Assembly: GCA_031426555.1 (NCBI GenBank)
Contig: JANPLN010000067.1
Coordinates: 1 to 64,000, forward strand
Reading direction: 5' to 3'
DNA length: 64,000 nt
DNA from: Bdellovibrionales bacterium
GTDB taxonomy: Bacteria; Bdellovibrionota; Bdellovibrionia; Bdellovibrionales; JAGQZY01
This document shows, one piece after another, positions 3,586 through 42,296 of this stretch; within the stretch, counting starts at the first letter, position 1; every line of letters begins with the position of its first letter. The position numbers and the translations under genes are program-made. The notes under the pieces were generated by a model. The model had not been told where the DNA came from. It was given only the letters and a program-made list of their open reading frames with translations, and did no database searches.

Positions 3586-4725
3586 CTATGGCAGAAGAAT
3601 ACGTCGATTTTTATTTAAATGCACGGAAATCGAACCCTGGCGAGAGGGCATGGACCATTGGATTTTGTAAATTCCTGTTGGCAAACCTCTTTGCAAAAAA
3701 GGTGTATATTGCTTTTTGATAAGAACCAGTTTTTCGTTTTGCTTTTTATACAAGCTAATCTGCGCCCAGCGAAAACTCCTCACTTCCAAATGAAATGTGT
3801 TTAAACTTCCTTCGAACTGAGTGGCGGGATGAAGCGCGTGGGAATAAAGCATCATAAAAATACCAACAAAGGCTGCAACAAACGGCGCCACAGAACGCGT
3901 TGGGACACTTTTCGGGGGAGCCTCGGCCAGCATTGTCGTTTGAACGCTTTCTTTTTTACTATTTTTCAGTTCGATAATGGTCTTAGCAAGCTCATCGCAC
4001 TGCTTGGCTGCCGACGCCAGCGGCAAAAAGCGTCTTTCCGCACTGTCTGCGCAAACTAGCGAATTCGTGTCTTTTAAAGACTCCATTCTTTGTTGGGCCT
4101 CAGCACGGGTGTAGACACGGTCGCCGCTTTCCAATTCTTGTTTAATTATTCCAAGGGAAAATAAGTCGGATTGAGCGGTTTGTTCGTTTTGTTCCCAGGC
4201 TTCGGGCGACAAATAGGCCAATGTGCCAGCAGTGGCTTTTTTTTGTAAACTAAAACCAAAGTCCAAAAGCTTCACCACGCCTTGTTTGGTGATAAAAATA
4301 TTTTTGGGGCTTAAATCCCCGTGCTTTAGATTATTCTTTTGTAAATCTTTGAGCCCGGATTGCACCTGCGCCACAATTTCATCGATCAAACTTTGCGAAA
4401 AGCGAATTCTTCGCAAACACTCATCGAGTGTGATCCCATCTAAATACTCCAGCACCAAAACCGGCGTTTTTTGCGTATCGATCCAACCGTAGAATTTCAC
4501 ACAATGAGGAGAGTCCACCCGACCCAATGCGTGCACCTCTTGTGCGAATGTTGGGACTAAATCTTTAGACTTAAGAATTTTAAGGGCCACCGTTTGTTCA
4601 ACGCCCCATTCGCGGTGCTTTTTAATACCTTTATAAACACAACTAGTTAAACCTTCCCCCAAAAGCTCCACGAGGTTGTAGTTGTTGATTTTGGCGTACT
4701 TTTTTCGACTCATACCTAGGCTCAT
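3586..4725 (-). CDS. Hanks-type Ser/Thr protein kinase with C-terminal TM helix and extracytoplasmic domain
   Basis: LGEG, VALK, HGDLSPKNI, DFG and GTLAYLSPE motifs; hydrophobic segment VAPFVAAFVGIFMML. Confidence 0.9.
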   Translation of the reverse strand: MSLGMSRKKYAKINNYNLVELLGEGLTSCVYKGIKKHREWGVEQTVALKILKSKDLVPTFAQEVHALGRVDSPHCVKFYGWIDTQKTPVLVLEYLDGITLDECLRRIRFSQSLIDEIVAQVQSGLKDLQKNNLKHGDLSPKNIFITKQGVVKLLDFGFSLQKKATAGTLAYLSPEAWEQNEQTAQSDLFSLGIIKQELESGDRVYTRAEAQQRMESLKDTNSLVCADSAERRFLPLASAAKQCDELAKTIIELKNSKKESVQTTMLAEAPPKSVPTRSVAPFVAAFVGIFMMLYSHALHPATQFEGSLNTFHLEVRSFRWAQISLYKKQNEKLVLIKKQYTPFLQRGLPTGIYKIQWSMPSRQGSISVHLNKNRRILLP

Positions 4726-5164
4726 TTACAAATTCTTTGCCAATATCGGAACTTTTTATCACCTCCGCTAAAGAGCTACTGGCCGCTGTTTTGTAGTGGT
4801 GATCCAAATAATATTTTTGGACCTCCTCCCGGCACCGACCCGCAGTGATGTATTTAAAGATTTTTTTGTGGGGCAACGGAGGATCGTGCTCTAGGGAGCT
4901 CAGACAACGACGGTTTAAAAAAACCAACAGCGGGCCTCGGGCCACGTTTGTCGCGGGTGTTTTATGGAGCCACTCGAAACAAGAGCTTGGGATCCAGCTT
5001 TGCTTTATTTCGATGTCACATCTTTCCTTCAAGATACGTTCTTGCAGACCCTCCTGGTGAATGTTTTCGATTTGTGCCGAGGTTTTGGCCTTCATTAAAG
5101 CACTTGTATCGCTATCTGCATCGGCACCAACTAGGGCAATCACGGTGAAGAGTACTGACATCAT
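4643..5164 (-). CDS. Hypothetical Cys-containing exported protein
   Basis: The ATG at 5164 overlaps the upstream stop (ATGA). Hydrophobic N-terminus MMSVLFTVIALVGA. The 3' end overlaps the kinase start. Confidence 0.6.
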   Translation of the reverse strand: MMSVLFTVIALVGADADSDTSALMKAKTSAQIENIHQEGLQERILKERCDIEIKQSWIPSSCFEWLHKTPATNVARGPLLVFLNRRCLSSLEHDPPLPHKKIFKYITAGRCREEVQKYYLDHHYKTAASSSLAEVIKSSDIGKEFVNEPRYESKKVRQNQQLQPRGAFGGRFN

Positions 5165-5592
5165 CTCGCCACCTCCGTCAGCAATTGCGCAAGAAGCGGA
5201 CCCAACAGAATCACCATCAGGGCTGGGAACTGCAAAAACAAAAGCGGGATCATAAGTTTGTAGGGCAATGTTGCAAGGTGTTGTTCCAATTGCTCTTCGC
5301 ACACAAAACGCAATTCCAATTCCAATTCGCGCACGGGAACGATCAGACTCACGCCCTGCTGTGATAGCATCAACAAATCCCAAATGGCTTTTTGATAACT
5401 GCTTTTAAAGGCGGGTTCTGCAAGCACGAGCTCGCCGAACTCTTGCAAACGCAACCAGTGCTTCAGCATGAGACAGAATTCGTTTTGAAACTGCGTTGTG
5501 TACTTTTTCACTGCCGAGCGCGCCGTCCCGCCAGATTCGAGTTCGTAAAGTAAATCCAGGGTAAATTGGTAAGGCGGTGCTAAATGTTCCAT
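5161..5592 (-). CDS. Short TadC/T2SS-F-like membrane protein
   Basis: C-terminal KLMIPLLFLQFPALMVILLGP is typical of TadC/GspF; follows the tadB-like gene. Confidence 0.6.
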   Translation of the reverse strand: MEHLAPPYQFTLDLLYELESGGTARSAVKKYTTQFQNEFCLMLKHWLRLQEFGELVLAEPAFKSSYQKAIWDLLMLSQQGVSLIVPVRELELELRFVCEEQLEQHLATLPYKLMIPLLFLQFPALMVILLGPLLAQLLTEVAR

Positions 5593-6326
5593 CGGATGCG
5601 CCTTCCTATGCTGAGGACAGTGATCATTCCCGCCAAATAAAATGCCAACGACAGTGTCACCAAGCCTTTGTAGTCCTTGAGCGAGAACATAAAATAGTTG
5701 ATTGCAAAGATCCCTGCATAGATCAGCGACATTAAAATGATCTGTAATTTGATTTGTCCGCGAATTCGCCCCGACCTACGTCGGAACTTTTCGACAATCA
5801 TTAACCTCCTGCGAAAATTTTCTACTTTTTCAATGGTTTTGTGTGTTGAACCGTCAATTTTTGCAATTTCGGCGCAAATTTCTGCATACCAAACCCCTTT
5901 TGGCGCACTTTCTGCGGTCATTTCTTGTTGTGAAAAAGCAACATGCTCGTAAATCGACTGCAAAATCATCCTGGGTCGGCGTTTTGCTTGTTGAATCGCG
6001 GCTCGCAGTGCTTGGCGAAAACTTTGTCCCAACTTCATGTGCAAAATGATCGACGTGAGAACCGCAGGAAACTCTTTACTGAATTGAGTTTGCTGGTTTT
6101 TAAAATATAAAAAACGAATTCCAAAAACACTGATCACCGAAAAATAAATCAGCATCCAATTGAGCAAAAAGTTTGGAAAAAAAACGATGTGCACACCATG
6201 AAATACAAAAAAGGCGATGCCAATTTTTGTCATTCGGTGATCTTGAACAAAATTTTGTCGTAAAAAGATTCGCAATACAGAAAATCCGATACAAACACCG
6301 AACATTTTTAAAAAAAGAGCGAACAT
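5580..6326 (-). CDS. TadB/T2SS-F-like membrane protein
   Basis: FSKEFPAVLTSIILHMKLGQSFRQAL and R..GQIKLQ followed by two TM helices. GGAGG lies 6 nt before the ATG at 6326. Confidence 0.65.
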   Translation of the reverse strand: MFALFLKMFGVCIGFSVLRIFLRQNFVQDHRMTKIGIAFFVFHGVHIVFFPNFLLNWMLIYFSVISVFGIRFLYFKNQQTQFSKEFPAVLTSIILHMKLGQSFRQALRAAIQQAKRRPRMILQSIYEHVAFSQQEMTAESAPKGVWYAEICAEIAKIDGSTHKTIEKVENFRRRLMIVEKFRRRSGRIRGQIKLQIILMSLIYAGIFAINYFMFSLKDYKGLVTLSLAFYLAGMITVLSIGRRIRWNI

Positions 6327-6390
6327 CAACATCCTCCAGTGATAAAAACAGACATACATTCAAAAAAAATGCTAAAGCTAAAATTTTTTA

Positions 6391-6418
6391 TTGACGATAA
6401 GGTATGCATGAGTAAACT
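6391..6418 (+). promoter_or_regulatory. Putative sigma70 promoter for the small Lys-rich ORF
   Basis: TTGACG-N16-TAAACT preceded by an A/T-rich tract. Confidence 0.5.
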
Positions 6419-6470
6419 GAAAGCATCAGTGAACAACAAACAACAACTGATATGCATCTAAGGAGGCAAC

Positions 6471-6539
6471 ATGGCTAAGAAGAAAAAAGCAAAAAAGAAA
6501 ACTGCTAAGAAAAAAACTGCTAAAAAGAAAAAGAAGTAG
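6471..6539 (+). CDS. 22-aa lysine-rich peptide MAKKKKAKKKTAKKKTAKKKKK (not in ORF track)
   Basis: AGGAGG at 6461-6466, ATG at 6471, TAG at 6537-6539; flanked by promoter-like boxes and an intrinsic terminator. Confidence 0.8.
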   Translation: MAKKKKAKKKTAKKKTAKKKKK

Positions 6540-6570
6540 TTTCTAGTAGTTTGATTTCTACATAGAAATC

Positions 6571-6601
6571 AAAAAGCCCCTCTCTGAGGGGCTTTTTTTT
6601 T
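6571..6601. terminator. Bidirectional intrinsic terminator between the small ORF and icd
   Basis: AAAAAGCCCCTC-TCT-GAGGGGCTTTTTTTTT; a second inverted repeat TTTGATTTCTA/TAGAAATCAAA lies at 6550-6573. Confidence 0.9.
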
Positions 6602-6662
6602 GCCTAAAGCCCAACCTATGGGCCAGTAATGTGTCAACGCGGGCCGAGCCCGCATCAACAAC

Positions 6663-7886
6663 CTAAGACAATGCTTTTCGTAAATTTTCGTTGATGGCTT
6701 CCAAAAACGGCACAGTGTTCATGTATTTGTCGGCTGTGACCTTATCGCCGTGGATACAAACTGCTAAATCTTTTGTCATCTTTCCAGATTCCACCGTTTG
6801 AATACAAACCTTCTCCAGAGTTTGGCAAAATTGGATGAGCTCACCATTGTCATCAAGCTTACCTCGATGTTCTAGGCCACGAGTCCATGCAAAGATAGAG
6901 GCGATGGGGTTGGTGGAGGTTTCTTTGCCCTGCTGGTGCATGCGGTAGTGGCGAGTCACCGTTCCGTGGGCGGCCTCGGACTCCATTGTCTTTCCATCCG
7001 GGGTCACTAACACCGACGTCATTAACCCTAAGGATCCAAAACCCTGGGCCACGGTGTCTGATTGCACATCGCCGTCGTAGTTTTTGCAGGCCCATACATA
7101 ACCACCAGACCACTTCATCGCCGAGGCAACCATGTCGTCGATCAAACGATGTTCGTAGGTGAGTTTTTCGGCTTCGAACTTGGTTTTGAATTCTTTTTCG
7201 TAAATTTCTTGGAAAACATCCTTAAAGCGGCCGTCATACTTTTTAAGAATTGTGTTCTTGGTCGATAAATATAGTGGCCATTTTTTTTGCAGAGCAACAT
7301 TAAAGCACGAACGAGCAAAGCCGCGAATGGATTCATCCGTATTGTACATCGCCAGCGCCACCCCATCGCCTTTAAAATTAAAAACCTCGAAGGATTGCTT
7401 TTCTCCCACTTCGGGCTCGAAGGTGATGGTGAGCTTACCTTTACCCTTGGTTAAAAAGTCCGTAGCTCTGTACTGATCGCCAAACGCGTGTCGGCCGATG
7501 CAAATCGGTTGGGTCCAATGGGGAACCAAACGAGGAATGTTATTTATAATGATGGGTTCACGAAAAACGGTCCCATCTAATATATTGCGAATGGTTCCGT
7601 TGGGCGACTTCCACATTTGCTTAAGATCGAATTCTTTGACCCGTGCTTCGTCGGGGGTGATCGTTGCACATTTAATGCCCACATTGTACTTCTTGATGGC
7701 TTCCGCCGCCTCAACTGTGACCTTATCTTCGGTTTTGTCGCGGTATTCGACTCCGAGGTCAAAATACTTAATATCTAGGTCGAGATAGGGAAGGATGAGC
7801 TTTTCACGGATAAAATGCCAAATGATTCTTGTCATCTCATCGCCATCTAACTCGACAACAGGATTTGCAACTTTGATTTTTTTCAT
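6663..7886 (-). CDS. icd: NADP-dependent isocitrate dehydrogenase
   Basis: [32 protein letters not shown] and [10 protein letters not shown] motifs. Confidence 0.98.
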
Positions 7887-41101: not shown

Positions 41102-42160
41102 ATGAGTAAAAATAAATACGACTTTATCGTCATAGGTTCTGGCATCGAAGCGCTGCTCAAATGCCTTGAGCTTGAACAAACCGGTCTCTCTGGATGCATC
41201 ATCGAAAAAGAAGACACCCTGGGTGGGCTTTTTCGGGGTCTTCGCAGCAACGAAGTGCTCTTTGAGTCCCATCTTCCGTTCATGGATGATTCGCTCGAAG
41301 TTCGCCCCCTTGCAGACCAACTCTGCGCAACCATAGACGCTCTCACCTACGAAACAAAAGATCTAGGCCCACTGACCTTCCACAACGGTCAAATTCAGCC
41401 ATTTATGGGCTTTGGCGAAACCAGCAACCTGGCGGTCGACGTCTATTCTTATTTTTCGCAGGCAAAAACTCTGCACTTTTCGCAAAGCTTCAGCGCCATG
41501 GCACAAAAACTTCGCGAAAAACTCACCTGCGAAATTTTCAATCAAAGCGAGGTCACGGCGCTGGAGTTGGAACCGCAAGTGCAAGTGACCATCAACGGAT
41601 CCACCGTTTTGCTTTCCGAAGACCTTTATTTTTACGATTCCCCCCTCAAACTTTCCAAGTTGCTTTCCGTCAGCAAAACGAACCTTCCTAAGAACCTAGT
41701 TCCTAAACTTTCAAAAACGCAGTTGTGGACAGCCATTAGTTTGGTCTACCGCCATCACCGTCCTGTCACGGAAACCTCCGCCATACATGTTCTTTACGGC
41801 GCCAAAGAGCTCCCCTGCTTGGGACGTTTTCAAAATGAGTTTGGCGTACCTACCTCGCAATGGCTGTGTTTGGTGAGTGCCGAAGAAGCGGCGGACAGTG
41901 AATCCCTGGGAACGACATTGCGCGAAATGAAAAAGCAAATCAAACGCATGTATCCGGTGTTTTTGGAAACAGTGGAGCAGGAAAACATCTTTATCGCGCC
42001 TGATTCCTATGGAACTGTAAATACTCAGCTTTTAGAAAACGATCGGTTTCCTAAAGTAAACCGACTGCATGTGGGTTCTCGTTATTATGCCGGGCACCCC
42101 ACCCTCTGGGGAAAGCTCGCGCCGGGAGCGGATTCAAGGGACTTAACGCAAAGCGTTTAG
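41102..42160 (+). CDS. FAD/NAD(P)-binding oxidoreductase-like protein
   Basis: YDFIVIGSG…IIEKEDTLGG Rossmann start, with the third Gly replaced by Ala. Confidence 0.6.
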   Translation: MSKNKYDFIVIGSGIEALLKCLELEQTGLSGCIIEKEDTLGGLFRGLRSNEVLFESHLPFMDDSLEVRPLADQLCATIDALTYETKDLGPLTFHNGQIQPFMGFGETSNLAVDVYSYFSQAKTLHFSQSFSAMAQKLREKLTCEIFNQSEVTALELEPQVQVTINGSTVLLSEDLYFYDSPLKLSKLLSVSKTNLPKNLVPKLSKTQLWTAISLVYRHHRPVTETSAIHVLYGAKELPCLGRFQNEFGVPTSQWLCLVSAEEAADSESLGTTLREMKKQIKRMYPVFLETVEQENIFIAPDSYGTVNTQLLENDRFPKVNRLHVGSRYYAGHPTLWGKLAPGADSRDLTQSV

Positions 42161-42233
42161 GTCCATAAACCCCTGCTTTTTTTAAACCTTCTATGTTACC
42201 CCCTTCTTACGTCAAATTGGCGAAACTATAACT

Positions 42234-42296
42234 CACTTTTCGGACTCCGCTGGTGCCGGGCGCTCTTTGCAGCGATTACGGTTCTCTGAAAAGGTG
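42234..42296 (+). promoter_or_regulatory. Structured rpsB 5' leader (possible S2 autoregulatory element)
   Basis: CACTTTTCGGA pairs with TCTGAAAAGGTG upstream of the AAGGAGG RBS; rpsB leaders are known autoregulatory RNAs. Confidence 0.4.

Follow-up and report, generated by a model that had tools for sequence, protein, structure and literature searches.

Can a peptide that is mostly lysine be the product of a gene of its own, and what would such a peptide do in the cell? This question is raised by positions 6391 to 6601 of a 64,000-nt stretch from a Bdellovibrionales bacterium (assembly GCA_031426555.1, contig JANPLN010000067.1), which was analysed as a whole and is called the window here; all coordinates are those of this stretch. 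A first-pass annotation had described the interval as a stand-alone transcription unit for a polycationic micro-peptide, listing TTGACG-N16-TAAACT, a leader hairpin, AGGAGG, an open reading frame (ORF), a hairpin and a terminator. All of these elements are present, and both the anatomy of the unit and the conserved coding frame support the description. We found a complete stand-alone transcription unit, with promoter, 5' hairpin, strong ribosome site, ORF and terminator, which is very probably a real, unannotated protein-coding gene. Its 22-residue, +15 product may bind nucleic acid as a polycation, independently of sequence, and would then most likely neutralise and condense the DNA of the nucleoid in the manner of H1 tails and protamines, a reading to which the sequence data lead us to give a probability of roughly 45%.

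The coding sequence lies at 6471–6539 on the plus strand, TAG stop included, and was taken from the open-reading-frame listing. It encodes MAKKKKAKKKTAKKKTAKKKKK, 22 amino acids of which 15 are Lys, 4 Ala and 2 Thr, with no acidic residue. Direct reading of the sequence shows a Shine-Dalgarno motif, AAGGAGG (6460–6466, plus strand), 4 nt 5' of the ATG. A consensus scan placed a sigma-70-like promoter at 6391–6418 on the same strand, in which TTGACG (6391–6396) and TAAACT (6413–6418) are separated by a 16-nt spacer and 9 of 12 positions agree with the consensus; transcription is predicted to start near 6424. Both the minimum-free-energy and the centroid folds contain a 5'-proximal stem-loop (6423–6455, plus strand) with arms GCATCAGT (6423–6430) and ACTGAT..GC (6446–6455), or GCAUCAGU and ACUGAU..GC in RNA letters. 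The CAA-repeat loop of this hairpin, GAACAACAAACAACA (6431–6445), is made solely of A and C save for its initial G, and the earlier description of an A/C-only loop between ATCAGT and ACTGAT holds except for that letter. Downstream of the ORF, the 3' untranslated region (3' UTR) contains a predicted hairpin, GAUUUCU-ACAU-AGAAAUC (6553–6570, plus strand), and the unit ends in an intrinsic terminator (6571–6601) with a 12-pair stem (6571–6597, 6 G-C pairs) and a T-run to 6601. A scan of both strands indicated that this terminator also reads on the opposite strand, facing icd.

The ORF is the sole open frame in the 3.14-Mb assembly with at least 11 Lys per 15-residue window, and only 5 open frames have at least 9. 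A shared regulon was sought by means of the promoter string, which was found once in the genome, with no other site. The predicted transcript has a folding energy of −47.5 kcal/mol, compared with −29.0 ± 4.0 for 200 shuffles (z = −4.67). Since the lysine density and the promoter string are both unique in this genome, the fold deviates this far from shuffled sequence and the unit is conserved across genera, we consider the unit to be beyond chance expectation.

The conservation of the unit was assessed in two ways. A 231-nt query spanning it was searched in 40 relatives and gave full-length matches at 86–99% DNA identity in every one of the 5 congeneric genomes, one of them cut by a contig end, and matches at 76–77% in three genomes of two other genera (g5 and g6). 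In several further genera the match covered the promoter, the leader and the start of the ORF. Each locus matched by the query contains a Lys-rich ORF with a MAKKKK start, 3' of a GGAGG-type site. Because low-complexity sequence attracts spurious matches, we then used an independent anchor, the divergently transcribed gene for a 259-aa membrane protein at 5580–6359 on the minus strand. Of 121 genomes sampled from the class, 101 encode the anchor protein, and a divergent K/R-rich ORF was found at near-constant distance in 30 of 30 of the best-scoring anchor loci from these 101 genomes. The first regular expression caught 29 of these ORFs, and the 30th, which has a MAKRRKK start, was found by eye. 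Four further orthologues (in G033, G027, G074 and G049) were recognised by a match adjoining the anchor. In total, micro-gene orthologues were found in 42 genomes of 17 genera and 6 families, all within one order.

The first-pass annotation had stated that it would be contradicted if relatives kept the A-rich sequence but lost its ribosome site, frame and stop. This is not what we observed, as ribosome site, start, frame and stop are intact in the 38 tabulated loci and in the four recognised next to the anchor. Moreover, in two genomes of the same genus the micro-gene unit retains 88% and 86% DNA identity where the anchor protein is 45% and 58% identical, respectively, and outside the genus the anchor protein is about 30% identical or less. 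By this comparison the micro-gene unit is conserved much better than its surroundings.

The orthologues also carry the signature of a translated frame. Every one of them opens with ATG-GCN followed by a Lys, Arg or Ala codon, has a GGAGG or GAGG core 5' of the ATG and stops directly after a basic C-terminus. None of the 34 unique orthologue sequences contains Asp or Glu, the residues after the initial Met are limited to K, R, A, T, S, V, G and P, and the frame is held throughout despite large differences in length. Nucleotide differences between close pairs fall at third positions and are synonymous in 5 of 5 cases for L001/L009, 3 of 3 for L010/L051 and 5 of 6 for L001/L007, and amino-acid replacements between alignable orthologues are for the most part Ala/Thr swaps. 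Such a substitution pattern is, as read from these alignments, typical of coding sequence. The window ORF uses 8 AAA and 7 AAG codons for lysine, an AAG share of 7/15 compared with 27% in the long ORFs of this genome. The longest A-run is at most 7 in 33 of the 34 unique coding sequences and 8 in the remaining one; when the AAA and AAG codons of each sequence were redistributed at random, the longest run averaged 7.0–10.6. Ribosome sliding on consecutive AAA codons is reported in the part of Koutmou 2015 available to us, and the short A-runs and AAG use would fit selection against such sliding on poly-A.

We asked whether the gene has been annotated. Exact look-up of the peptide and 21 orthologues in a collection of 15 billion proteins returned none of them, and the same collection contains the icd and SWIB proteins of this genome. 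Since the peptide is missing from a collection that holds these two, the micro-gene has been left without annotation in this genome at least. The collection likewise lacks several other K-rich proteins encoded by relatives, and K-rich sequences may generally be under-represented in it or in the output of the gene callers on which it depends.

Across 34 unique upstream regions from the 6 families, the −35 TTGACG is invariant (34/34) and the −10 is TAAACT or a close variant. Directly 5' of the −35 is an A/T-rich block, CAAAAAAAA-TGCTAAAG-...TTTTTTA (6361–6390, plus strand), that is largely conserved in the 34-region alignment, where it appears as GCAAAAAAAG, TGCTAAAG and a T-run. This block could be an UP-like element or a control region common to the divergent gene. 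An AACAACA motif recurs in leaders across the order. Of 8 aligned sequences, 7 retain the pairs of the 5' stem-loop, and the two g5 genomes show a compensatory C-G to U-A change; by analogy, the stem-loop would make the mRNA more stable, and initiation would be helped by the CAA-rich single strand. AAGGAGG in this position is found at only 41 of about 6,700 crude ORFs of at least 80 aa, and its carriers include rplJ-, rpsB- and flagellin-like genes, judged by their N-termini alone. In the alignment of 8 relatives from the same genus, g5 and g6, most retain the 3' UTR hairpin, and the terminator has compensatory changes at two stem pairs; more distant relatives have a different stem followed by a T-run at the terminator position. 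Given the invariant −35, the A/T-rich block, the 5' stem-loop, the CAA-rich leader and AAGGAGG, we infer that the micro-gene is highly expressed. As a separate observation, an inverted repeat TGAC-N7-GTCA (TTGACGAATATAGTCAC), formed from the −35 and the spacer, was seen at L007, L011–L015, L027, L032, L035 and L037 and is only partly retained in the genus of the window; it is a possible operator overlapping the promoter.

What would the peptide do? The orthologues are 22 to 116 aa long, and their length differs even between members of one genus, with 26, 27 and 67 aa in g14 and 45–108 aa in g4. In genus g25 the orthologue is a 36–39-aa (KKxx)n protein, and the genus of the window has the shortest, tail-only form. 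The only features conserved across orthologues are composition, the MAKK(K) start and the basic end. This plasticity suggests a polyelectrolyte and points away from a protein that occupies a fixed slot. Because composition, a MAKKK start and a basic C-terminus are all that is kept while length shifts within a genus, binding would be by charge rather than by fold, and we consider it likely that the peptide is a charge-based polyanion binder. In the mechanism that we favour, the peptide would neutralise nucleic-acid charge through its composition, its main target would be DNA, and it would coat and condense the nucleoid. The choice of DNA as the main target is made because a MAKKKK(A/T)KK tail is also fused to SWIB proteins and to one sub-threshold histone-fold-like protein.

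These fusions came from searches for the same tail on other proteins. The genome itself encodes a protein of 117 aa in which an N-tail, MAKKKKVAKKATAAKK..., precedes a SWIB/MDM2 domain (100.8 bits); the gene lies on the minus strand of contig C66 at about 41,920–42,270 (locus L063:1168–1518). The ribosome site and first codons of this gene are 79% identical in DNA to those of the micro-gene, which suggests either a common origin of the tail or convergence. A phylum-wide pattern of GGAG, a 4–10-nt spacer and ATG-GCN-(AAR)4 matched 47 of 201 genomes, and a reversed control pattern matched 0. Thirty loci read from the 47 matching genomes encode mostly longer proteins with K-rich N-tails, many of them H1-like and 100–190 aa long; two tailed proteins of relatives resemble the SWIB protein, by sequence similarity only. 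The tails on SWIB and histone-fold proteins have the identical MAKKKK start and the same (A/T)KK repeat style; there a folded domain follows, whereas the micro-gene ends after the tail. Among the 30 loci, pure tail-only micro-genes were found within the order only, and one further candidate, a fragment of 21 residues in another family, is cut off by the end of its contig. Three further observations were made on such proteins. A short ORF of this genome (C15:39090–39263, plus strand) has a sub-threshold histone-fold match (20 bits, compared with a cut-off of 21.4), a 71-aa histone-fold-like version in a relative (L054, G207) bears a MAKKKKKTTKKTK tail, and the loci L072–L077 of family f18 encode proteins of about 105 aa whose N-terminal half is rich in K and whose C-terminus, ...PSLFSVGSGLTG...EE, is conserved.

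Known cationic proteins offer several comparisons. Like chlamydial Hc1 and Hc2, the micro-gene products are rich in Lys, Ala and Thr, of low complexity and built of cationic short repeats, so that the likeness in composition holds. The number of repeats in Hc2 differs between strains, and in the micro-gene family, too, gains and losses of repeats change the length. The micro-gene products would also act in the same way, by electrostatic condensation of DNA. For Hc1 and Hc2, late-stage expression and DNA condensation have been demonstrated, whereas the micro-gene is known here from sequence alone; the window peptide is also far shorter (22 aa) and belongs to its own order-wide syntenic locus. 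The C-terminal tail of H1 (K, A, T, S and P) and protamines are likewise disordered polycations that act by charge neutralisation, and the peptide is in the protamine size range. However, protamines are eukaryotic proteins rich in Arg, and H1 includes a globular winged-helix domain where the micro-gene has only a tail; the relation to both is analogy and not homology. AlgP of Pseudomonas and the H1-like proteins of Burkholderia and Bordetella (NF038053) are bacterial and share Lys/Ala-rich repeat tails. They differ in size, being about 200–350 aa long, and some of them carry additional regions.

Several results weigh against a nucleoid protein. Kinship with chlamydial Hc1 or Hc2 or with the H1-like NCBIfam family was not borne out by profile searches. 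Among 7 longer orthologues the best score against HC2 (PF07382) was 7.8 bits (L034, E = 4.3) with a cut-off of 40, and the best against NF038053 was 7.6 bits with a cut-off of 80; the window peptide had no match to the latter. Composition-bias filters may suppress matches of the HC2 type. The window peptide and 4 short orthologues had no match in Pfam or NCBIfam with E up to 10, a homologue search with a 46-aa orthologue gave 1,237 word candidates and none at E ≤ 0.001, low complexity defeating the search, and the 22-aa peptide matched only itself among the proteins of its own genome (E = 0.1). The histone-fold-like tailed protein of a relative scores 16.7–20 bits, below the Pfam cut-off of 21.4. 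Nor are MAKKKK tails specific to chromatin, since they also occur on a CTP synthase (L062, G008; confirmed by Pfam); another is on a 330-aa protein (L052, G159). In the A-run shuffle test just 6 of 34 sequences reached P ≤ 0.05, and these are among the longest except for L007 (28 aa); the window gene gave P = 0.057, and the test is uninformative (P = 1) for five KKxx-type sequences.

The choice of target is subject to the same caution. For a +15 peptide, rRNA, polyphosphate and acidic lipids would be no less ready partners than DNA, no pool of polyanion in a bacterium is larger than that of the ribosomes, and this genome encodes both PPK1 and PPK2. The nucleoid, the ribosome and polyphosphate are all compatible as targets with the present sequence data. 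In B. bacteriovorus a FliA-type motif, TTAAG-N16-CCGATA, is found on 92 of 140 (66%) mapped attack-phase promoters, according to the part of Karunker 2013 (PMC3627812) available to us. The promoter of the micro-gene is sigma-70-like and unlike this motif, and the link to the attack phase drawn in the first-pass annotation is thus left without sequence support. Among the 8 attack-phase-specific intergenic RNAs tabulated in the accessible part of that paper none is evidently this locus, the coordinates being mapped without certainty.

We next consider a ribosome- or rRNA-associated micro-protein that neutralises rRNA charge, like bTHX, bS22, bL37 or eL41. These proteins are 20–35 aa long, very basic, encoded by small genes of their own and easily overlooked by gene callers, and the micro-gene, with its tiny, highly basic product and strong ribosome site, resembles them in this. 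The ribosome is moreover the most abundant polyanion, and the sigma-70-like promoter with its A/T-rich block may resemble growth-related promoters. Yet the tiny ribosomal proteins have fixed lengths and specific sequences, and a range of 22–116 aa, shifting within genera, is unexpected for a fixed ribosomal pocket. No family of this kind was found at E up to 10 in Pfam or NCBIfam, no ribosomal protein gene was identified among the flanking genes in the examined loci, and the tail is fused to SWIB and histone-fold-like proteins. A ribosomal role is therefore unlikely in our estimate. The first-pass annotation had placed a non-specific polyanion binder beside a small ribosome-associated protein; the plasticity in length and the tail on SWIB and histone-fold-like proteins favour the former over the latter, though indirectly.

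The product could also be associated with polyphosphate or act as a general polyanion buffer, similar to the tail of AlgP or to a coacervate scaffold. The presence of PPK1 and PPK2 is in keeping with this, and in the part of PMC9239181 available to us AlgP is tied to polyphosphate granules through its Lys-rich tail, the Lys-rich C-terminal domain being proposed to bind polyphosphate electrostatically. The examined loci show no linkage to polyphosphate genes, and no family match was obtained. We regard polyphosphate as an improbable main target, although the data do not separate it from nucleic acid.

A third explanation makes the RNA the product, as an A-rich small RNA or protein sponge in which the ORF is incidental. 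In its favour, the transcript is short, bracketed by hairpins and folds with the z score given above, and the leader and coding part are rich in A-R-N triplets. Triplets of this type are bound by Hfq. An Hfq sponge or Hfq-binding small RNA was dropped as a candidate, as no Hfq gene (PF17209) was found in this 100%-complete genome; the family was found in 5 of 14 control genomes. Nor did the locus match an Rfam family at its gathering score, the best being Phe_leader at 34.6 against a threshold of 55, over the terminator. An incidental ORF is also at odds with a start, ribosome site, frame and stop that are intact in all 42 genomes despite changes in length, with lysine codons that switch only between AAA and AAG, and with differences biased to third positions. 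This makes an RNA product very unlikely.

Equally hard to credit is an exported cationic weapon by which a predator would permeabilise prey membranes or condense prey DNA. Polycationic peptides are able to disrupt membranes, the nearest atlas clusters of the neighbouring protein are mostly from Bdellovibrionota, a phylum that includes predators, and this conserved neighbour has a secretion-platform-like (T2SSF) lead. However, the window peptide has no signal peptide and no hydrophobic segment, the neighbour is divergently transcribed and its family assignment is weak, and the longer orthologues look like H1-like proteins that act inside the cell. A leader peptide or attenuator that senses lysine and controls a neighbouring gene can be set aside almost entirely. 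A short Lys-rich ORF followed by hairpins and a terminator has a superficial likeness to such a leader, and Rfam leader models match over the terminator below their thresholds. The next gene downstream, icd, is convergent with no same-strand gene present, the downstream neighbour changes between genera as the unit is retained, and the pairing between ORF and 3' UTR is not conserved, depending on an insertion missing from several relatives of the same genus.

The neighbouring genes were examined with regard to synteny. The first-pass annotation had looked to synteny with icd, which lies convergently at 6663–7886 on the minus strand (window gene scan). This arrangement proved to be local and not order-wide. 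The same-genus and g5 loci have a similar-sized convergent ORF in the place of icd, known by size and position alone, and the downstream neighbour differs among genera while the micro-gene unit persists. The conserved neighbour is the divergent membrane-protein gene at 5580–6359, identified by anchor search and atlas clusters. Its protein has no Pfam family and a weak UpsF match in NCBIfam, and its nearest atlas clusters are Bdellovibrionota hypotheticals of 245–248 aa with a T2SSF lead of 0.93. The true start of this gene is probably at 6326, the third in-frame ATG, with GGAGG 6 nt upstream, which would give a protein of 248 aa. The 259-aa form is absent from the protein collection, and the start at 6326 may explain this. 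From its position, we would treat the gene as a synteny anchor and as a candidate partner at most.

Two further observations concern the surroundings. A G+C-rich hairpin, GCGGGC-CGA-GCCCGC, at 6639–6653 separates the shared terminator from the stop codon of icd (6663) and probably belongs to the 3' end of icd. On the minus strand, the ORFs at 4643–5383 (246 aa, TTG start) and 5161–5592 (143 aa) overlap each other, with no Pfam family in either, and the former also overlaps a Ser/Thr kinase gene at 3586–4725.

What does a gene of this kind mean for these bacteria? We found no description of such micro-genes in the published literature on Bdellovibrio, polylysine, nucleoid and small-protein topics, and among the papers listed for Bdellovibrio with histone H1 no title or opening of an abstract hints at one. 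Bottom-up LC-MS/MS (tandem mass spectrometry coupled to liquid chromatography) is unlikely to detect a peptide that is mostly lysine. The 2023 nucleoid proteomics study (PMC10627809), to judge from the part available to us, relied on bottom-up LC-MS/MS of peptides. A preprint (10.1101/2025.09.24.678257) urges study of the full nucleoid protein set, and the list in its accessible part names SMC, HU, Fis, IHF, Dps and two histone-fold proteins; the micro-gene is not on that list. The micro-gene would represent a minimal, tail-only new form of the bacterial H1-like polycationic proteins. A bolder proposal, of which we are doubtful, is that a tail-only polylysine protein of 22–116 aa, present across the order, could be the missing electrostatic factor behind the exceptionally compact Bdellovibrio-like nucleoid. 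It would work as a protamine analogue alongside the bacterial histone, and many phyla would harbour a hidden class of polylysine micro-genes of which it is one lineage. Since the gene is conserved, has strong expression signals, is not on the list of the preprint and is unlikely to be detected by bottom-up proteomics, it is, with a polycation of +15 to about +75 encoded in each member of the order that was examined, a concrete candidate overlooked by current catalogues. The case also suggests that a class of highly cationic micro-proteins is systematically left out by gene callers and protein databases.

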